Of a stretch of DNA of 64,000 nucleotides, positions 42,754 through 51,434 are shown piece after piece; position 1 is the stretch's first letter, and each line of letters opens with the position of its first letter. The notes under the pieces were generated by a model. The model did not search any database and had not been told where the DNA came from. It saw only the letters and a program-made list of their open reading frames with translations. Both the position numbers and the translations under genes were made by a program. Source of the stretch: an uncultured Rickettsiales bacterium (GTDB lineage: Bacteria > Pseudomonadota > Alphaproteobacteria > Rickettsiales > UBA1997); contig CALXSG010000002.1 of the NCBI GenBank assembly GCA_944391075.1, positions 27,869 to 91,868 of the forward strand, given 5' to 3'.

Positions 42754-44571
42754 ATGATAGTAGAAAAAATTTTTAAAAATATTCAAAATGATCTTTCTTT
42801 ATTTAGTAATGAAGAAATTAGTAATATAGATAATGTAATTTATCAAAAAGATGATGGTAAATATTATATAAAATCAAATTCAAAAGGTGAAGAAGAAAAA
42901 ATGATTTATAGTGAAAAAAAATCTTCACCAGAAGAAATTGTTAGACAACTTTGCTTAAATAGATTAATCAATAAATATAAATATCCTAAAAATTTAATAG
43001 ATATTGAAACAATGGTAAATTTTGGCAGAGAAAAAAAGAGAGCTGATATAGTAATATATAAAGACGATAAAATAACTCCTTATATTATTGTTGAAGTTAA
43101 AGCTCCAAATGTCAAAAACGATGTAAAACAATTAAAAAGTTATTTGAATGCAGAAGGTGCTGAAATTGGTATTGTAATAAATGGGCAAACTGACGAAATA
43201 TTATATAGACCATATCCAAAAGATTTTTCATTACTACCAGACATACCAGAATATAAAGAATCACCAGAAGATGTTTATAGCAAAAAATTCAAATACAATG
43301 AATTAAAAGAACCAAAACAATTAAAACAAGTAATACAAAATTTAGAGGATGCAATACTTGCAAACTCAGGTTTTGATACTTTTGACGAAATTTTTAAAAT
43401 AATTTATGCAAAACTTTATGATGAAATGCAAGGTCAATACGACGATAATTATATTCTAGAATTCAGAGCCAGAAAAGAAGCTGATATTACTAAAAAAGCC
43501 ATAGACAAATTATTTGACAAAGCAAAAAATGAATGGCGAGATATTTTTGACAATAACGACAAAATAAAATTAAAAGATACTCACTTATCAAGTATTGTTG
43601 CAGAATTACAAGAATATAAATTATTAGGTTCTAATTTACAAGTTATTGACGATACATTTGAATACTTAATTCCAGATGTAGCAAAAGGTAAAAAAGGGCA
43701 ATATTTCACACCTAGACATGTAATTGATATGTGTGTCAAAATGCTAAATCCTAAAAAAGACGAGTTTGTAATAGACACAGCTTGTGGTTCTGGTGGTTTT
43801 TTAATCCACACAATGAAATATGTTAACCCTAAAAATTTCTCAGCCTATGCCACCAAACATTTATGGGGGATAGATTTTGACGAAAGAAGTTCAAAAATTT
43901 CAAAAGCAATGATGTTAATTGCTGGCGATGGAAAATCTCATATTTTCAAAGAAAACTCATTAGATTCTTCTTCTTGGGGCGACAACATAAAAGTAAATTT
44001 AAACAACGAAAAATTAGCAGATGAAAATTATAGATATTTCAATTTTGACATATTACTTGCCAACCCACCATTTGCCGGTGAAGTCACAGAAAAAAGTATT
44101 TTAGCAGAATATCCAAATGTTGTAAAAGAAAAACAAACAAAAATTTCAAGACACTTACTTTTTATCGAAAGAAACTTAAATTTTGTCAAAGATGGTGGAC
44201 GACTAGCCCTTGTCCTTCCACAAGGTGTATTCAACAACACCAGTGAAAAATACATCAGAGACTTTTTGGCAAACAAGGCCAGAATCATAGCAGTTATAGG
44301 ACTTGACACCAACACATTCAAACCACACACAGGCACAAAAACAAGTGTATTATTTTTACAAAAATGGGACAAAAACACCAACCCACAAAAAGCAGACTAC
44401 CCGATCTTTTTCGCAGTAAGTGAAAAATCCGGAAAAGACAACAGCGGAGAATACATTTACAAAGAAATCGATGGAAAAAGAGTTTTGCAACACGACTTAG
44501 ACGAAATAGCCAACGAGTTTATAAAGTGGGCTAAAACCGAAGGTTTTGAGTGGTGGAGTGGTAATAAATAA
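42754..44571 (+). CDS. hsdM: N6-adenine DNA methyltransferase (HsdM-like) fused to an N-terminal PD-(D/E)xK nuclease-like domain
   Basis: aa 98-116 'ADIVIYKDDKITPYIIVEVKAP' gives D...ExK (nt 43045-43101). SAM motif 'VIDTACGSGGFL'. Catalytic 'NPPF' at nt 44062-44073. Confidence 0.8.
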   Translation: MIVEKIFKNIQNDLSLFSNEEISNIDNVIYQKDDGKYYIKSNSKGEEEKMIYSEKKSSPEEIVRQLCLNRLINKYKYPKNLIDIETMVNFGREKKRADIVIYKDDKITPYIIVEVKAPNVKNDVKQLKSYLNAEGAEIGIVINGQTDEILYRPYPKDFSLLPDIPEYKESPEDVYSKKFKYNELKEPKQLKQVIQNLEDAILANSGFDTFDEIFKIIYAKLYDEMQGQYDDNYILEFRARKEADITKKAIDKLFDKAKNEWRDIFDNNDKIKLKDTHLSSIVAELQEYKLLGSNLQVIDDTFEYLIPDVAKGKKGQYFTPRHVIDMCVKMLNPKKDEFVIDTACGSGGFLIHTMKYVNPKNFSAYATKHLWGIDFDERSSKISKAMMLIAGDGKSHIFKENSLDSSSWGDNIKVNLNNEKLADENYRYFNFDILLANPPFAGEVTEKSILAEYPNVVKEKQTKISRHLLFIERNLNFVKDGGRLALVLPQGVFNNTSEKYIRDFLANKARIIAVIGLDTNTFKPHTGTKTSVLFLQKWDKNTNPQKADYPIFFAVSEKSGKDNSGEYIYKEIDGKRVLQHDLDEIANEFIKWAKTEGFEWWSGNK

Positions 44572-44580
44572 GGAGAGTAA

Positions 44581-45456
44581 ATGCATATATTTGATATTAT
44601 AAAACAAAATTATGATATAAAAGAAGAATTTTTAGAAATAAGAAATTTATTTAATAAAATAAAATTAAACTATTGTGGTTTCTTATATACAATAGAAGAA
44701 TTAGCGGATAAGAATTTTTCAAAATGGAAAGGTAGAAATACGATGATTAATTGTTCAAAATATAAAAATAAATTAGAACAATATATTTTAAAATGTTATT
44801 CAACCAAAAAAAATGGTATTAATATAATTGATTATAATAAACCAGAAATTATTATTATATATTTAGAATATTATATAAATATATCTCATTTTGTTAATTC
44901 ATTAAGATTATTTAATCTATTCATTTCTAATCCTAATGATTTTCAAATTATGAGTGAAAATATAAAAATATTATTGGAGCATTTGAATTATCAAAAAATA
45001 AATGATAATGATAATATTTTATTAATTCCAAAGAATCCAGAAGCTATTGTTGTTGCAGAACAAACAAAAAATATAGAGATAGCAAATGCTATACTAAAAT
45101 ATAATCACTACTCATTAAAAGGAAATCTTGAGGACAAAAGAAATTTGCTAATTTCTATTGCTAATGAATATAATGGTTTTTTACATAGTAAATTGGCAGG
45201 TTTTAATAAAGAACTTGATATGGCCATATTTTTAATAAATAATTGTCATATAAGACACAATAATAAAAGCGGAAATGAAGAAAAAAAATTAATAGCTAAC
45301 CTAAAAAATGAAGATCTTGAAAAATTATATGATGATACATATCAACTAATATTATTCTGTATTTTAGCTAAAACAAATGTTGAAAGAATGAAAAATTTTG
45401 AAGAAAAAGTAAAAAAACCAATTATAAATGGAGGTAAAAAATGCAATACTCAATAG
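44581..45456 (+). CDS. Hypothetical protein embedded between the methylase and specificity genes
   Basis: Strong SD (AAGGAG) 5 nt upstream. The 3' end overlaps the hsdS start by 16 nt. Helical. No motif identified with confidence ('NNCHIRHNNKSG' noted). Confidence 0.6.
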   Translation: MHIFDIIKQNYDIKEEFLEIRNLFNKIKLNYCGFLYTIEELADKNFSKWKGRNTMINCSKYKNKLEQYILKCYSTKKNGINIIDYNKPEIIIIYLEYYINISHFVNSLRLFNLFISNPNDFQIMSENIKILLEHLNYQKINDNDNILLIPKNPEAIVVAEQTKNIEIANAILKYNHYSLKGNLEDKRNLLISIANEYNGFLHSKLAGFNKELDMAIFLINNCHIRHNNKSGNEEKKLIANLKNEDLEKLYDDTYQLILFCILAKTNVERMKNFEEKVKKPIINGGKKCNTQ

Positions 45457-46844
45457 TTAATTTAAGCGAAGTTAGAGAAAATTCAGATTTTAGAATTGAC
45501 GCTGAATATTGGAAACCTGAATATTACGATTTGGTAAAATTATTAAATTATAAAAAAAGTAAAGATTTTTTTTATTATACTGAATTTATTAAAAAAGGTA
45601 TATTTGATATTTCCCCTAAAGAATATACGAATCACAATGGAATACCATTTGTTAGATCTGGAGATATAAAAAATATTTTTTTATCATATAATAATATGGT
45701 TCAAATAAATCAAATAGTGCATAAAAAAGAAATAAAAACAGAATTAAACAAAAATGATCTTGTACTATCGAAAGTTGGAACTATTGGTAACTTTGGTATT
45801 AATTTTGAAAAAGATAAAATAAATTTTAGTCAAAATGTTATTGGTATAAAAATAAAACAAGAATATAAAAATATTAGTGGATTTTTATTATCTTATTGTA
45901 ATTCAAAATATGGACAAAATCAAATTAAAAAAAATGTAACTGGACAAGTTCAAGAAAAGTTGACATTGAATGATATTAAATTTTTAAAAATTATAGATTT
46001 ATCTAGATTATTTCAAGAATCTATTGCTTCACTTGTCAACAAATCTTACACACTACGAGAATCTGCCGATACACTATACAAAGAAGCAGAAGATATTTTG
46101 CTTGAAGAATTAGGCTTTAAAGATTATCAAATAAAAAATCAAAAGTATTTTGTTAAAAATTTATCAGATACTCAAAAAGTTAGTAGAATTGATGCTGAAT
46201 ATTTTCAACCAAAATATGAAAATTTAATTAATAAAATAAAAGAATATAAGGGGGGATATAATATTCTTGATAATATTTGTAAAATAAAAAAATGCATAGA
46301 ACCTGGAAGCTCTGAATATAAAGAAAATGGCATACCTTTTATTAGAGTTAGCAATTTAGGTATTTTTGATATAAATTCAAATAATCAACAATATGTTAGT
46401 GAATTATTTTATAATAAAAATATTGAACATCAACCAAACAAAAATGAAATTTTATTGTCAAAAGATGGAACATTAGGTACTGCATATTGTTTATATAAAG
46501 AACCAGATAAAATGATTTGTAGTGGTGGAATTGTAAGATTAATTAATACAAAAATACAACCATTGTGTTTAACTTTGTTTTTAAATTCTATTATTTCTAA
46601 AATGCAAATAGATCAAAAATCAGGTGGAGCATTAATATCGCATTGGCTAATTGATGATATCAAAAATCTTCTCATTCCCATTTTGCCTGACTCTATTCAA
46701 TCCACAATCTCTTCAAAACTCCACAAATCCTTTCTTGACAGGCAAAAGTCTCTTGACTTGTTGGCTGTGGCGAAAGGGGCTGTTGAGGTTGCTATTGAAG
46801 ATGGGGAAGATGTGGCTTTTGGGTATATTGATAATAATTTATAG
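45441..46844 (+). CDS. hsdS: Restriction-modification specificity subunit (HsdS-like, two TRDs)
   Basis: Duplicated conserved motif 'FRIDAEYWKPEY' (N-terminus) and 'SRIDAEYFQPKY' (middle), each followed by a variable TRD and a coiled-coil spacer. Confidence 0.85.
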   Translation: MQYSIVNLSEVRENSDFRIDAEYWKPEYYDLVKLLNYKKSKDFFYYTEFIKKGIFDISPKEYTNHNGIPFVRSGDIKNIFLSYNNMVQINQIVHKKEIKTELNKNDLVLSKVGTIGNFGINFEKDKINFSQNVIGIKIKQEYKNISGFLLSYCNSKYGQNQIKKNVTGQVQEKLTLNDIKFLKIIDLSRLFQESIASLVNKSYTLRESADTLYKEAEDILLEELGFKDYQIKNQKYFVKNLSDTQKVSRIDAEYFQPKYENLINKIKEYKGGYNILDNICKIKKCIEPGSSEYKENGIPFIRVSNLGIFDINSNNQQYVSELFYNKNIEHQPNKNEILLSKDGTLGTAYCLYKEPDKMICSGGIVRLINTKIQPLCLTLFLNSIISKMQIDQKSGGALISHWLIDDIKNLLIPILPDSIQSTISSKLHKSFLDRQKSLDLLAVAKGAVEVAIEDGEDVAFGYIDNNL

Positions 46845-46995
46845 TCTTTTGTGGTAAATATTGAATATGAAGATATAGCTAGTTAATTGTATTTTGTATT
46901 GATAATAATTTATAGTTTTGTGTGGTAAATGATATAATATTAAAAATATAATTATTTGATTGTATTGATAATATTATTTGTGGGGTGTGTAGTAT
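46826..46995 (+). repeat. Three ~70-bp-spaced echoes of the hsdS 3' terminus
   Basis: 'TATTGATAATAATTTATAGTCTTTTGTGGTAAAT' (46830), 'TATTGATAATAATTTATAGTTTTGTGTGGTAAAT' (46898), 'TATTGATAATATTATTTGTGGGGTGTG' (46963). Confidence 0.7.
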
Positions 46996-47301
46996 GTTTG
47001 TTTTGTTGTGTTGTAAAATGTCTAATTGGGGTTTGTGAGTTATAATAAATGTGCTGTGGTTCTGTGATGTGGCGATTTTGTAAAGTATTAATAATTTTGT
47101 AATATTGTGGGGATGTTATAAAACTTTGTTTTATTGCATTAACTAAGTTATGGTGGATTTTTTTATAATTTTTAGTATAAATTAATTTTTGTAATGATAT
47201 TTATTGATAACATTTGATGTTATTTATCTAAATATTAAGTATAATATTGTATATTTTTGTTGATAAATTAATGTTTGTCAAATGAGTATTTATTGATTGA
47301 G

Positions 47302-47397
47302 AATTTAGAAAATAAATATAAAATATTTATTCTAGTATAGTAAAAAATTTATGGAAGTATAAATTTAGTATTTTTGTATTTATAATTTAAATTTTCT
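47302..47397 (+). repeat. 96-bp direct repeat, copy 1
   Basis: Near-identical to 47530-47626 ('AATAAATATAAAATATTTATTCTAGTATAGTAAAAAATTTATGGAAGTATAAATTTAGTATTTTTGTATTTATAATTTAAATTTTCT'). Confidence 0.9.
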
Positions 47398-47529
47398 TCT
47401 CGTGGTGTTAGGTATCTTACCCAACACCCAATGCTATCAAAAATTGAATTTATAATTTAAATTGATTTTATAAAACTTCACCATTTACAAGCCTTCGATA
47501 TATACTCAGGAGACCCTATACCACAGTAT

Positions 47530-47626
47530 AATTTAAAAAATAAATATAAAAATATTTATTCTAGTATAGTAAAAAATTTATGGAAGTATAAATTTAGTAT
47601 TTTTGTATTTATAATTTAAATTTTCT
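47530..47626 (+). repeat. 96-bp direct repeat, copy 2
   Basis: Differs from copy 1 by one extra A and one G/A change. The copies bracket a 132-bp unique segment. Confidence 0.9.
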
Positions 47627-48035
47627 CAACTCCCTGCAATTTTGTTGCTTTCGCCTTTATAAATGAAGGTAAGGAAAAAAGAATTTCGTCGCTCTCCCTT
47701 ACGAAGGGAAGTAAAGAGAAGAGGGTTTTGTCGTTCCCAATTATAAATGGGGCAAAGGATGGTGAATTCTTTTTTTGTAAAAGGATGAACTACTGGTTAT
47801 TTGTGGATTGCCACAGGCCTTCGGCCTTTGCAATGACGAAGGGGCAAGCGATGGTGAATTCTTTTATTTTTCTATGAATAAATAAGGAAGTAGTGGTTTA
47901 TGGATTGCTTCGCTTCGCTCGCAATGACGAAGGGGTGGGTGTGTTTATGGATTGCTTCACTTCGCTCGCAATGACAAGTGGATGAAGGGTAGTGAATTTT
48001 TTTATTTTTTCTATGAATGAATAAGGAAGTAGTGG

Positions 48036-48123
48036 TTTGTGGATTGCTTCGTCGTTTCACTCCTCGCAATGACAGCACACACAAACTCGTCATTGCGAGA
48101 GTTGCTTGCAACTCGTGGCAATC
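48036..48123. mobile_element. Palindromic element A (right end truncated)
   Basis: TTTGTGGATTGCTTCGTCGTTTCACTCCTCGCAATGAC-agcacacacaaactc-GTCATTGCGAGAGTTGCTTGCAACTCGTGGCAATC. Confidence 0.6.
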
Positions 48124-48260
48124 TCAGTATGGGATACAATTAATCATTCATGGAATTTTTTTTCTTTTCTGTTTTTGTATTGACTATTAGTGATTTGTGG
48201 GGGATTTGCCTCCCTTTGTAAGGGGGGAAGTTGCGAAGCAACAGGGGGGTTGAGAGAGAA

Positions 48261-48284
48261 ATTGAAAATTGAAAATTGAAAATT
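48261..48284 (+). repeat. ATTGAAA heptamer tandem tract (one of five)
   Basis: 3-4 tandem copies of the heptamer ATTGAAA. Similar tracts lie at 48442-48464, 48543-48572, about 48798-48820 and 48899-48928, flanking the conserved module of each macro-repeat. Confidence 0.8.
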
Positions 48285-48347
48285 AGTTTTTTAATTTGAT
48301 AAATAATAGTAAATTCTTTTTCTTTTTTGTTTTCGCATTAACTTTTT

Positions 48348-48441
48348 GTGGTTTATGGATTGCTTCGTCGTTTCACTCCTCGCAATGACAGTACCCCCAA
48401 GCCTGTCATTGCGAAGGCCGAAGGCCTGTGGCAATCCATAA
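48348..48441. mobile_element. Palindromic element B (complete)
   Basis: TTATGGATTGC..CGCAATGAC / GTCATTGCG..GCAATCCATAA arms, with an AGGCCGAAGGCCT inner hairpin in the right arm. Confidence 0.65.
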
Positions 48442-48706
48442 GAAATTAAAATTGAAAATTGAAGCACAAAGTGGGAAAATGATATGCTTGCATAATCATT
48501 TTAGCTTGTCGTCCCACGAAGTGCGAAACGAACAAAGCATAAGAAATTGAAAATTAAAAATTGAAAATTAATATTTCATCAAAAATTAGTTCTTTAATTT
48601 GATAAATAATAGTAAATTCTTTTTCTTTTCTGTGAATGAATAAATATTAGTGGTTTATGGATTGCTTCGCTTCGCTCGCAATGACAAAGGGGTGGTGGTT
48701 TGTGGT

Positions 48707-48797
48707 TTATGGATTGCTTCGTCACCTTGCTTCTCGCAATGACAGTACCCCAACACCGTCATTGCGAGAGTTGCTTGCAACTCGTGGCAATCCATAA
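48707..48797. mobile_element. Palindromic element C (complete)
   Basis: Same termini as element B. The left inner segment differs (TCACCTTGCTTC). The right arm carries GAGTTGCTTGCAACTC. Confidence 0.65.
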
Positions 48798-49106
48798 GAA
48801 ATTAAAATTGAAAATTGAAGCACAAAGTGGGAAAATGATAAGCTTGCATAATCATTTTAGCTTGTCGTCCCACGAAGTGCGAAACGAACGAAGCATAAGA
48901 AATTGAAAATTGAAAATTGAAAATTAATATTTCATCAAAAATTAGTTCTTTAATTTGATAAATAATAGTAAATTCTTTTTCTTTTCTGTGAATGAATAAA
49001 TATTAGTGGTTTATGGATTGCTTCGCTTCGCTCGCAATGACGAAGGGGTGGTGGTTTGTGGTTTATGGATTGCTTTTTGCTTGCAAAAATAAGGGGGCGA
49101 GTGGTG

Positions 49107-49193
49107 TTTGTGGATTACTTCGTCACCTTGCTTCTCGCAATGGCGGTATCCCTACATTGTCATTGTAAAATCAAAGGTTCTGGCAATCTATAA
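49107..49193. mobile_element. Palindromic element D (degenerate)
   Basis: TTTGTGGATTACTTCGTCACCTTGCTTCTCGCAATGGC...GTCATTGTAAAATCAAAGGTTCTGGCAATCTATAA; decayed copy. Confidence 0.5.
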
Positions 49194-49339
49194 AAATTAG
49201 AAATAAAAAATAAATTTTGTACTTCCATAATTATTTTATTGATATATAATAAAAATTTTTTATAGAAATATTTAAATTTTGCCCTTAAAAATAAAAAAAA
49301 TGTTAAAAAATTATGAAATTTATTTATATTTGAAGAATA

Positions 49340-49435
49340 AAAACAAAAAGGGGTTTTAAGCCCCCTTTTCGGATCAAGTCTCGTTATTATGCAGAAATAA
49401 TTCTAGAGTTTATTTCATTAACTACCACTACAATC
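49340..49435 (-). ncRNA. Candidate ~95-nt small RNA defined by a promoter-like site and an orphan intrinsic terminator
   Basis: On the minus strand: TTGATT (49469-49464), 16 nt spacer, TAAAAT (49447-49442). Further downstream, hairpin GGGGGCTTAAAACCCC (49346-49369) followed by TTTTTGTTTTT. No ORF is associated. Confidence 0.3.
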
Positions 49436-49577
49436 ACTTTGATTTTAATGTATAGTTTTTAATAATCAACTATTTATATATATTTTTTTAAATATACAAC
49501 CTATTTATTATTATATATAAAAAACAAAATTTTAATTATTTTAAATAATATATTGATTTTTAAGATTTTATAAAGTG

Positions 49578-49606
49578 TTGACAAATGCCAAAAAATATGA
49601 TACAAT
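49578..49606 (+). promoter_or_regulatory. Consensus-like sigma70 promoter of the HAD::MDH gene
   Basis: TTGACA (49578-49583), exactly 17 nt spacer, TACAAT (49601-49606). It lies inside the 5' end of the listed ORF, so the GTG at 49575 is unlikely to be the start. Confidence 0.6.
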
Positions 49607-49631
49607 ATGTGTAGGTTTTGAGAAACATGGT

Positions 49632-51434
49632 ATGTTTATGGCAAAAAATAATAAATTATTTCAACAAAAACCAAAAATGGTTTTATTCGATCTTGGAAGT
49701 ATGATTCTTGATTATAAAAGAGTTAATTTAGATACTATTAATCAAATTTTATCGGATTATAATACATCAATTTTATTGGATGCTAAAAAATATAAAAATA
49801 GTTATAAACTTAAAAAAAGCCTTAAACAGATATATGAAAAAGAAGATGCAAAAATATTACTAAACAATATTAAAAAATTACCATTACTTAATGATAATAT
49901 ATTTAAAACACTTGAATATTGTAGAAAAGAAGGCATTAAAACTGCTATTGTTGGAAAAAAAGATAATAAGGCAACTAAACAATTTTTAGACGCATTAAAT
50001 TTAACAAAATATTTTGATGATATACTTGTACCTCAAAATAATAAGAATGTAGATGATAAAGTTTTATCTTCTTATTTAAAACAAAATAATATAGATACAA
50101 AGAAAGATACTGTATTATTTATGGGAGACAATTTCAATGTGGTTAAAAATTCTTTTAGAACAGGTTGTATTCCTGTAATTTATAAAAAAACTGCAAAAAA
50201 GAAAAATTTATGGAAGTATATGAAGAGACTGTCTAAAATGAGATCTCTTCAAACAATTAGATATGTTAATAGTCAAAATGATTTTATTAAATTGATGCAA
50301 AAATCAAAAAAGGCACGTTTAGATAAAAAAGTAACAAAAATCACATATATTGGTGGCAGTGGTAAAATAGGTAAAAGCGCTATAAATATGATTTGTTCAC
50401 AAGTGCCTAATGGCAAAAAGGTTGAATTAGTTTTAATTGGTTCTGGCGATCCTGAGAGTTTAACTAGATTAGAAGGACTTATTAAAGATGTAAAAGGTGG
50501 CTTAGAATTATTAGGCAGAAAATCAAAAATTAAATTTACAATTACAAATGATTATTCGAAAACCGAGGGTTCAAAAGTTGCTATATGTTCAGCTGGAAAA
50601 TGGCCTACACCAGAGCAAAAAGCAATATTTAAAAAGAGAGATCCTAGTGGTAGATCACCACAATCTATTGTAAATGCTGATATGATTGCAAGTATTTCAA
50701 AAAATTTAAATAAATATTGTCCAGATGCATTATATTTAATGGTTACAAATCAAGTTGATACAATGTGTCATATTGCTAGACAAACAGCCCCTAATATGAA
50801 AAATATTCTTGGTTTGAGCGGTGCTGTTGATTCGTCTAGATTAAGACAAAGCATAAGAGATACAATGAATATAGATGGTGCAAAAGGTTATATGATAGGT
50901 GCACATAATGACAATATGTTGCCAATAATTCAAAGTATTAAAACAAAAAATAACAAGAAAATATTTGCATCATTAATTAAAAATATAAAAAGTAAAAAAA
51001 CACATTTAATAGATCAAGAATTTCAATCATTAGAACAACAAAACTTTGAAACAGTACTATCAGCAACTAGAAAAATGGGTAAATTAATTTCTGACGAACA
51101 AAAAGCTGGTTTAAAAAATTGTAAAGAAGCAACAGAAGCTACATTGTTACCAGCTACTGCTATTACAAGAGTTGTAAATAGCTATTGTTTTGGTAAAGAT
51201 AAACATATTGAAAGTTATAATACAATTATATTAGATCCAAAAGTTGCAAGTCATTATGGTGTAACTCCTGGTACTGAAATAAGTATTCCACTATCAATCA
51301 AAAAGGGAAAAATACAACAAAAAGCAAATATTCCTTTATTGCAAACAGAAAAATTGGCTATAAAAAGAATATTGCAAAAAAACAGAGAAGATCTCAATAT
51401 AGTTCTTAATGAAAATAAAGGCTTAAGTTTATAA
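49632..51434 (+). CDS. Fusion protein: degenerate HAD-phosphatase-like domain plus divergent LDH-type malate dehydrogenase-like domain
   Basis: HAD part: 'MVLFDLGSMIL' (DxD reduced to DxG) and 'VLFMGDNFNVV'. MDH part: 'ITYIGGSGKIGKS', 'TNDYSKTEGSKVAICSAGK', 'MVTNQVDTM', 'AVDSSRLR' and 'GAHNDNMLP', with a ~12-aa insertion replacing the substrate loop (R-K-P-G-M-S-R). Confidence 0.65.
   Translation: MFMAKNNKLFQQKPKMVLFDLGSMILDYKRVNLDTINQILSDYNTSILLDAKKYKNSYKLKKSLKQIYEKEDAKILLNNIKKLPLLNDNIFKTLEYCRKEGIKTAIVGKKDNKATKQFLDALNLTKYFDDILVPQNNKNVDDKVLSSYLKQNNIDTKKDTVLFMGDNFNVVKNSFRTGCIPVIYKKTAKKKNLWKYMKRLSKMRSLQTIRYVNSQNDFIKLMQKSKKARLDKKVTKITYIGGSGKIGKSAINMICSQVPNGKKVELVLIGSGDPESLTRLEGLIKDVKGGLELLGRKSKIKFTITNDYSKTEGSKVAICSAGKWPTPEQKAIFKKRDPSGRSPQSIVNADMIASISKNLNKYCPDALYLMVTNQVDTMCHIARQTAPNMKNILGLSGAVDSSRLRQSIRDTMNIDGAKGYMIGAHNDNMLPIIQSIKTKNNKKIFASLIKNIKSKKTHLIDQEFQSLEQQNFETVLSATRKMGKLISDEQKAGLKNCKEATEATLLPATAITRVVNSYCFGKDKHIESYNTIILDPKVASHYGVTPGTEISIPLSIKKGKIQQKANIPLLQTEKLAIKRILQKNREDLNIVLNENKGLSL

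Follow-up and report, generated by a model that had tools for sequence, protein, structure and literature searches.

Composition of the field

The 64-kb window analyzed here (G000:C2:27869-91868, where G000 denotes the source assembly, 1.16 Mb in 35 contigs at ~25% G+C) comes from an uncultured alphaproteobacterium, and coordinates given without a contig refer to it. Between a 467-aa gene that stops at 46844 and the next gene, at 49575, lies a noncoding gap of 2731 bp (46845-49575), close to the ~2.7 kb given in an original prediction made from the sequence alone. The label hsdS attached there to the upstream gene is roughly right, as the 467-aa protein matches the MADS5 subunit S model (3.5e-48, below the model cut-off) and a type I S subunit (3.9e-9). 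Within the gap, the stretch 47627-49200 forms a field with 11 intact and 3 decayed hairpin units, arrays of heptamers, three leaders, a tandem repeat of 356 bp, and a pair of 82-nt modules, here called M82, and G+C climbs from ~0.2 to 0.32-0.40 over 47600-49250. The palindromic elements, leaders, heptamer arrays, macro-repeats, and 82-nt modules of the original prediction are all present where it had placed them. The field represents a known kind of repetitive extragenic palindrome (REP) in well-developed form, namely, CGTC-tagged REP hairpins of the NTS/SRM type, set in arrays that resemble the intergenic mosaic elements of Neisseria (NIMEs). We consider it probable, taking the explanation as a whole, that the field consists of intergenic repeats without genes, arranged as a mosaic array, and that its hairpins belong to the CGTC-tagged REP superfamily.

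The pattern GGATT[GA]C..GCAATG[AG]C finds 11 units within 47805-49144, with GGATTGC..CGCAATGAC as the intact form in the field. Read on the opposite strand, a unit has the form (C/T)GTC-ATTGC...GCAAT-CCA, and the termini are conserved both in the source genome and in a sister species, G005, whose whole genome was compared (average nucleotide identity, ~88%). Among 75 units in G000, the tag is CGTC in 38 and TGTC in 35, and the CCA tail is present in 74; among 219 units in G005, the counts are 124 and 91, and every unit has the tail. The ATTGC/GCAAT outer stem is found in all units. Class I units consist of this 5-bp outer stem, an internal loop, a variable 5- to 7-bp inner stem with many compensatory variants, and a loop of 3 to 4 nt, while class II and class III units keep the termini and have no fold of their own (z = 0.2-0.4). 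A class II unit paired with a class I unit can form one long hairpin, as at 48357-48437, with a predicted energy of -40 kcal/mol as RNA (z = -6.0) and -25.7 kcal/mol as DNA (z = -7.1). Paired units in G000 are arranged head to tail in 14 cases and with tags inward in 4, and those in G005 in 43 and 5 cases, respectively; neither set contains a tags-outward pair, an arrangement that occurs around a GIY-YIG nuclease gene described below and in other taxa.

Translation of the field yields LAMT nine times, FARND four times, VIASEAKQS three times, and CHCERSEAI twice, so that three of the four spurious peptides named in the original prediction are present and the fourth, RFARNDG, has no exact occurrence in the field. 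These are spurious-open-reading-frame peptides found in many metagenome-assembled genomes (MAGs), and their source is a described hairpin family, now with a plausible protein partner.

That family, which the original prediction had missed, is the CGTC-tagged REP superfamily (families CGTC-1 to -4; Di Nocera, De Gregorio and Rocco 2013, BMC Genomics 14:522, PMC3733652). Neisseria dRS3 and Rickettsia RPE-4 and RPE-6 are among its members, and it is defined by an unpaired CGTC/TGTC (or CCTC) tag, a stem that opens with two A-T pairs, and a CCA tail (PMC3733652). Described members have a stem of 8 to 9 bp with a loop of 4 to 5 nt, form mostly tags-outward dimers, and lack a dedicated transposase; they are centered on Alphaproteobacteria and spread over phyla, with big clusters being rare outside Neisseria and Wolbachia (PMC3733652). 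The units studied here share the unpaired CGTC/TGTC tag, the two A-T pairs at the start of the stem, and the CCA tail, and they are likewise extragenic, mostly downstream of genes (in convergent or unidirectional spacers), without a flanking transposase, and patchily distributed over several phyla with an alphaproteobacterial center. They differ in having a bipartite, bulged stem (5 bp, internal loop, and variable inner hairpin), in including two unit classes without an inner hairpin, in pairing head to tail at 62- to 63-nt spacing or with tags inward, and in occurring nearly always in large clusters.

The original prediction had compared the elements to Rickettsia palindromic elements (RPEs), an analogy that is reasonable, since RPE-4 and RPE-6 have been placed in the same superfamily (PMC3733652). 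The in-frame insertion into coding sequences to which it drew attention does not extend to this genome. The units are strictly intergenic, with none in a real coding sequence though ~90% of the genome lies in open reading frames (ORFs) of >=100 aa; ~156 sites are intergenic, and the 12 octamer matches inside ORFs lack unit context, so RPE-style in-frame insertions are absent. Br-REP1 and Br-REP2 of Bradyrhizobium were ruled out as the identity of the units, as their sequences are different, and a search of the literature by sequence or peptide strings returned nothing relevant. Rfam gave no match at E <= 1 in 46000-50000 or in eight loci of other taxa. A role of the units as intrinsic terminators was rejected because they lack T-runs; the sole terminator-like site, a bidirectional hairpin (AAAAAGGGG..CCCCCTTTT) at 49344-49371 that is conserved in G005, lies outside the field.

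Table 1. Features of the repeat field and its borders (positions in the 64-kb window)
Feature	Position	Strand	Details
Left border block	47302-47626	+	97-nt END module twice around the 132-nt dispersed repeat X132
END copies	47302-47397, 47530-47626	+	98% alike
X132 dispersed repeat	47398-47529	+	132 nt
Block of three small hairpins	47627-47800	+	174 nt; precedes first REP unit
REP unit, class I	47805-47837	-	Inner hairpin AGGCC/GGCCT; tag end right
Two class III REP units	47902-47928, 47949-47975	-	27 nt each, head to tail
Tags-inward doublet	48041-48126		Class II 48041-48073, 15-nt spacer, class I with decayed tail 48088-48126
G6 spacer module (..GTTGCGAAGCAACAGGGGGGTTGAG)	48198-48258	+	One of 12 copies in genome
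AAATTGA heptamer array	48259-48284	+	
AAATTGA heptamer arrays	48443-48463, 48544-48571, 48799-48819, 48900-48925		
AT-rich leaders	48279-48330, 48582-48633, 48938-48989	+	52 nt; 96-100% alike
Tandem macro-repeat	48345-49075	+	Period 356 bp, 2.1 copies, 93% identity; 292-nt stretch within 99% identical
Tags-inward doublet	48357-48437		Class II 48357-48389, 15-nt spacer, class I 48405-48437
M82 structured module, copy 1	48461-48530	+	Three-helix core; covariance-model score 101.8 bits
Class III unit, then tags-inward doublet	48659-48793		Class III 48659-48685; class II 48711-48743 and class I 48758-48793
M82 structured module, copy 2	48817-48886	+	Covariance-model score 98.2 bits
Right-hand field end	49015-49191		Class III 49015-49041, truncated unit 49067-49089, class II variant 49112-49144, decayed class I 49159-49191
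Class II variant GGATTAC..GCAATGGC	49112-49144		
Decayed units (n = 3)	48088-48126, 49067-49089, 49159-49191		
END inverted copy	49205-49278		70% complementary

Distribution and turnover of the fields

The units are not confined to this locus; such confinement is what the original prediction had named as a sign of a local duplication artefact. The nonamer CGCAATGAC occurs 141 times in the genome, against ~1.5 occurrences expected (an estimate from base composition), and a genome-wide census yields 75 full units in ~20 composite fields totaling ~17 kb, several of them at contig ends. The fields share a grammar of REP units, heptamers, M82 or G6, heptamers, leader, and REP units again, and this order and orientation recur at many loci. 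The component modules are themselves dispersed: the leader has 13 copies genome-wide, AAATTGA arrays number 74 by pattern count, most of them within fields, X132 has several copies in G000 and at least nine in G005, and the 174-nt small-hairpin block recurs at C18:20352-20526 (95%) and C4:1178-1351 (93%) of G000 and has an orthologue in G005 that is 96% identical. Genes flanking the fields range from housekeeping genes (tuf/nusG, glmS, glmM, pyrG, and ftsA) to pilin paralogues, with ~6 of 37 flanking ORFs being pilin-like. At G000:C11:24529-25065, the flanking ORF seems to be an rRNA gene read spuriously in antisense, and this field therefore probably adjoins an rRNA operon. A link to four-helix-bundle cassettes of 23S intervening sequences was rejected, as the gene occurs with and without units and the only similarity nearby is AT-rich and of low complexity. 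Units are present in 24% of the convergent spacers of G005, against 4.4% of its tandem and 2% of its divergent spacers.

Beyond these two genomes, which are the only ones with units in their genus, the distribution is patchy. Units are present in 13 of 41 relatives, and a reversed-pattern control gave no match in the 41 genomes. The same termini appear in Bradyrhizobium, Sphingomonas, Micavibrio, Solimonas, Legionellales, Bacteroidota, Chloroflexota, the candidate phyla radiation, and others, with one genome scanned per species, and there the usual form is a ~90-nt tags-outward pair. Within the genus, the assembly G001 has a lepA that is 97-98% identical to that of G000 (against 95% for G005), yet it lacks REP units and holds only diverged M82 copies; its lepA is split over two contigs (C91:39062-40445 and C7:26849-27421), and G001 is possibly a mixed or chimeric MAG.

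Comparison of orthologous sites shows how much the fields vary between close relatives. At the site of the window field, the left border is 96-98% identical in G005 (G/T-rich tract, a single END module, and block of small hairpins) and X132 is missing, the field itself being reduced to a single doublet of a class II and a decayed class I unit that corresponds to the last doublet of the G000 field (49112-49191). G000 thus carries 1.3 kb more, with the join inside the conserved GTGGATTGC terminus (47811 and 49107), as well as a 229-bp insertion and duplication at 47398-47626. At another spacer the relation is reversed, with a whole field of ~750 bp in G005 against ~100 bp in G000. Boundaries at the polymorphic sites are not clean, and no clean target-site duplication was seen at them. 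The modular swapping and recombination put forward in the original prediction are supported by the GTGGATTGC join, by doublets that hold different unit variants in otherwise 99%-identical tandem units, and by an orthologous M82 copy that differs between the species by blocks of paired changes. Site joins, shuffled doublets, and gain or loss of whole fields fit homologous exchange or gene conversion on conserved termini, and we propose that fields may grow, shrink, and reshuffle by such recombination anchored on the termini of the units.

The fields are also associated with changes in gene order. In G005, the regions between synteny blocks make up 20% of the genome and contain 49 of 66 fields, and the genes bordering a field-bearing spacer have nonadjacent G000 orthologues in 18 of 22 cases, versus 69 of 595 for other spacers (odds ratio, 34; p = 4e-13), an effect that also holds within convergent spacers alone. 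At 23 of 34 field junctions there is no field mark at either G000 breakpoint, which argues against a simple repeat-mediated misjoin. Fields may thus serve as substrates for genome rearrangement. Because they break assemblies and coincide with gene-order breakpoints, they matter both for the quality of MAGs and for the rearrangement of small genomes.

In their overall construction the fields recall the NIMEs of Neisseria, which are arrays of dRS3 hairpins separated by >100 families of 50- to 150-bp RS elements (Bentley et al. 2007, PMC1797815). NIMEs are dynamic between strains, adjoin variable genes and pilS cassettes, are flanked by genes that are more divergent than others, and were "not observed in non-neisserial genomes" (PMC1797815). 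Common to both are long arrays between genes, built of GC-richer hairpins in alternation with AT-richer families of repeats of 50 to 150 nt (here the leader, AAATTGA heptamers, G6, X132, END, and the 70- to 82-nt M82), a length and content that vary between relatives, proximity to pilin paralogues or variable genes, and an association with recombination. The differences lie in the hairpin, which is ATTGC..GCAAT rather than ATTCCC-N8-GGGAAT, and in the host. NIME-like arrays are thereby extended beyond Neisseria, to an uncultured AT-rich alphaproteobacterium. The class of the finding is unchanged by this, as it is an ordinary though well-developed example of REP-type repeats; what is new is the lineage, the bulged unit design, the head-to-tail and tags-inward layout, the strong link to gene-order breakpoints, and the covarying M82.

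A GIY-YIG nuclease gene inside related fields

In sister genomes, a candidate cognate nuclease gene, also missed by the original prediction, is located within fields of this type. In G005, a 97-aa GIY-YIG gene is present as two identical copies (C1:65087-65377 and C1:13171-13461), each within a field and between inverted class I units with tags outward. The same gene (94% aa identity) is found in a field by carD on L266, a contig from another sample that is conspecific with G000, as judged from its 96.9% match to G000 C21. The 97-aa protein matches the Pfam GIY-YIG family (4.5e-17), and its closest named homologues are "GIY-YIG nuclease family" proteins of Bradyrhizobium (64-69% identity), a genus that shares the unit termini. 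Across the 41 relatives, a homologue (E <= 1e-10) is present in 9 of 13 unit-bearing genomes and in 5 of 28 unit-free ones (odds ratio, ~10), the latter five being G004, G018, G022, G032, and G037. No gene recurs beside units in 120 loci of other taxa, where only spurious ORFs sharing repeat peptides were found.

The arrangement is that of the NTS hairpin and its nuclease. The NTS hairpin (CGTCATTCCCGCG..CGGGAATC), which contains dRS3, is bound and cut by SsnA, a small single-domain GIY-YIG protein, only when it is single-stranded DNA (ssDNA) (Chenal et al. 2025, Nat Commun 16:2388, PMC11893778). Cleavage needs three bases upstream of the palindrome and binding needs the C right after it; ssnA genes typically lie between such hairpins, and SsnA reduces transformation by NTS-bearing DNA (PMC11893778). 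The positions on which SsnA relies, that is, the GTC of the tag and the C that opens the CCA tail, are those conserved in the units, which like NTS/SRM are oriented hairpins whose palindrome is immediately preceded by a conserved GTC and immediately followed by a C. G005 and the conspecific contig also share with that system a single-domain GIY-YIG gene that has hairpins on both sides, and the tendency of motif-rich genomes to encode the nuclease is matched by the unit-bearing genomes here. Two differences are that the G000 assembly lacks the gene and that the units do not conform to the published degenerate SRM string.

We infer that the 97-aa protein may be an Ssn-type ssDNA nuclease. By recognizing the tag and the C that follows the stem, such a nuclease would hold the termini constant across phyla, and the units would serve, or would once have served, as hairpin targets in ssDNA, for instance in transforming DNA that enters the cell. 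G000 and its relatives have intact ComEC and DprA, and type IV pilins are numerous; the intact ComEC and DprA make a role in the handling of incoming ssDNA possible, as permissive evidence.

Several observations weigh against this interpretation or against parts of the wider explanation in terms of CGTC-tagged hairpins in NIME-like arrays. The ssn homologue is absent from the G000 assembly, including the orthologous carD field, and the genome G031 has 82 units and no GIY-YIG gene, so that the link to the nuclease is indirect for the window; in G000 the gene may have been lost or may lie in an unassembled repeat-bounded gap, and the units there may otherwise be orphans. The co-occurrence of units and gene (p ~0.002, one-sided hypergeometric, computed by hand) is judged by a statistic that ignores phylogeny, and the sole PDB sequence match of the 97-aa protein is a weak one (E = 1e-4) to the UPF0213 protein 1ZG2. 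Read by hand, the units miss the published SRM string, HGTCWYN(0-2)YYVSBRH... (PMC11893778): on CGTCATTGCGAG.., no choice of the N(0-2) gap puts two pyrimidines at YY, and YY after CGTCAT fails. The described 8- to 9-bp stem with its 4- to 5-nt loop is matched neither by the bulged class I units nor by classes II and III (z ~0), and the head-to-tail or tags-inward pairs depart from the tags-outward dimers that predominate in the described CGTC families. The breakpoint association comes from two MAGs, in which misjoins at repeats are possible. Finally, the genes that flank fields are not more divergent than others, with a median G000-G005 identity of 93.5% versus 90.8%, and the fraction with an orthologue is 0.82 versus 0.84.

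A six-frame search for GIY-YIG domains also revealed that G000, G001, G003, G008, and G005 have no UvrC-type match (an ORF of ~600 aa), the ssn gene being apart from this, while other members of the order do have one. Nucleotide excision repair may have been lost in the genus.

The M82 module and rival explanations

M82 constitutes a repeat family of its own, present in 16 copies in G000 and in 45 copies in G005. The two 82-nt modules of the window field (48461-48542 and 48817-48898) are the same except at positions 48485 and 48534, in agreement with the two substitutions given in the original prediction. M82 is also present in G001, G002, G007, G008, and G018, all without REP units, and it forms tandem chains in genomes that lack REPs. 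A covariance model found strong matches in G000 only among 151 genomes sampled from across the order, with weak ones (~35 bits) in three genomes of another family; the module is confined to the genus and one neighboring genus. No Rfam match was found for it at E <= 1.

The 82-nt module, in which the original prediction had noted a hairpin, keeps a common fold across its copies. Forty-three distinct copies, aligned without gaps, support three helices; 16 of the 21 pairs vary on both sides, and 95% of cells are paired, versus <=47% with slid partners, values that 0 of 500 shuffles attain. RNAalifold gives the same fold. The cells with G-U (~24) and A-C (~20) are balanced, without strand asymmetry, and as DNA either strand folds equally well; with balanced mismatches and a two-strand fold, the data are equally compatible with an RNA role and an ssDNA role. 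Covariation of this kind can also reflect amplification of fold-competent copies. The clear covariation makes M82 a concrete candidate for a new structured element, and it might represent a multicopy structured RNA not described before or serve a second DNA enzyme as its recognition hairpin.

One M82 copy stands alone with its heptamers, directly upstream of tRNA-Trp and between tuf and secE-nusG, in both species (G000:C9:13710-13907 and G005:C10:42520-42700), and it is antisense to the flanking tuf and tRNA-Trp genes. The two orthologues differ by the blocks of paired changes mentioned above, while their flanks are 95-97% identical, and these differences look like conversion from other copies. 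Two more decayed M82-like copies lie beside the G005 locus.

These properties bear on an alternative in which each macro-unit would be transcribed as a small unit and the field would be a tandem small-RNA (sRNA) gene array, with a promoter in the heptamers or leader driving an M82 sRNA and the REP doublets providing hairpins for processing, stabilization, or termination. This scheme is compatible with the preferred explanation, and it draws on the covarying three-helix fold, with 16 of its 21 pairs two-sided and the RNAalifold agreement, on promoter-like sites (TTGAAA-17-GAAAAT, with TG) just upstream of both M82 copies, and on the retention of the solitary copy between tuf and tRNA-Trp in G000 and G005. 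However, the balance of G-U and A-C cells and the equal DNA fold favor no strand, the solitary copy is antisense to both of its neighbors, and M82 behaves like a dispersed repeat, with many copies and with tandem chains in genomes that lack REPs. Moreover, Rfam offers no match, the promoter-like sites match only weakly (9 of 12 positions, in DNA of ~20% G+C), and the REP hairpins have no T-runs. We regard an sRNA array as unlikely. Mobilization by a transposase is another alternative. The units resemble the REP/BIME and REPIN elements of enterobacteria and pseudomonads in being short extragenic palindromes in mosaics, often in inverted pairs, and a truncated IS200-like TnpA N terminus (58 aa) occurs at G000 C3:45215-45388, ~450 bp from one field. 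Movement as REPINs through a REP-associated tyrosine transposase (RAYT), the situation in Pseudomonas and E. coli, is nevertheless largely refuted and highly improbable: the tag is CGTC rather than GTAG, CGTC REPs lack a flanking transposase in the literature, the 58-aa remnant is all that G000 holds, and no Y1_Tnp (PF01797) match exists in G005 with its 219 units or in G031, G034, and G039, while several unit-free genomes have one. The TnpA remnant (..HTKWNCKYHIVFAPKFRRK..) adjoins a ~250-nt GC-rich and apparently structured stretch (G000:C3:44950-45390).

Nested classical miniature inverted-repeat transposable elements, that is, insertion sequence deletion derivatives with terminal inverted repeats and target-site duplications that are moved in trans by a DDE transposase, would account for the patchy distribution, for whole fields that are present or absent between species, and for the 11-nt inverted ends (GTCATTGCGAG/CTCGCAATGAC) of the ~90-nt element of other taxa. 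We consider them very unlikely, as neither G000 nor G005 has a multicopy transposase ORF, no gene recurs by the units at the 120 loci of other taxa, polymorphic sites show no clean duplication of the target, and the join at the expanded site falls inside a unit terminus, as homologous exchange predicts. There is also the concern, raised in the original prediction, that repeats collapsed or expanded during assembly of the metagenome. Many contigs do end inside fields, and two Logan contigs stop at the END module, but a contig of ERZ24773441 is identical over 47703-49700 and one of ERZ24773446 over 13.4 kb, both including the two tandem units, and the same architecture is present in G005 and ~20 other genomes. 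As contigs of two samples are identical across the field, it is not the artefact of one assembly, and this explanation is barely credible.

A further reading has two parts, in which M82 is a new kind of structured element and the rest of the system is a plasticity kit that converged on that of Neisseria. Such a kit could combine Ssn-type hairpins in NIME-like arrays with many phase-variable type IV pilins and with ComEC and DprA. If so, the arrays would be the main substrates of genome rearrangement in a reduced alphaproteobacterial lineage. We regard this two-part reading as doubtful.

The surroundings of the field have features of their own. Upstream, the restriction-modification genes between lepA and the field (42770-46690) are swapped in G005 for a different 4-kb gene set, and conservation there is limited to the final ~150 nt of the S-subunit gene and the spacer that follows it; the region looks like an exchanged defense cassette with a fixed 3' end. 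A G/T-rich tract of the plus strand begins right after the S-subunit gene (46850-47130), with GC skew up to 0.78 at ~22-24% G+C, and is 98% conserved in G005. On the other side of the field, synteny with G005 stops at ~49540, and a near-consensus promoter (TTGACA-17-TACAAT, with TG) lies at 49578-49606, ahead of a HAD/Ldh-like gene.

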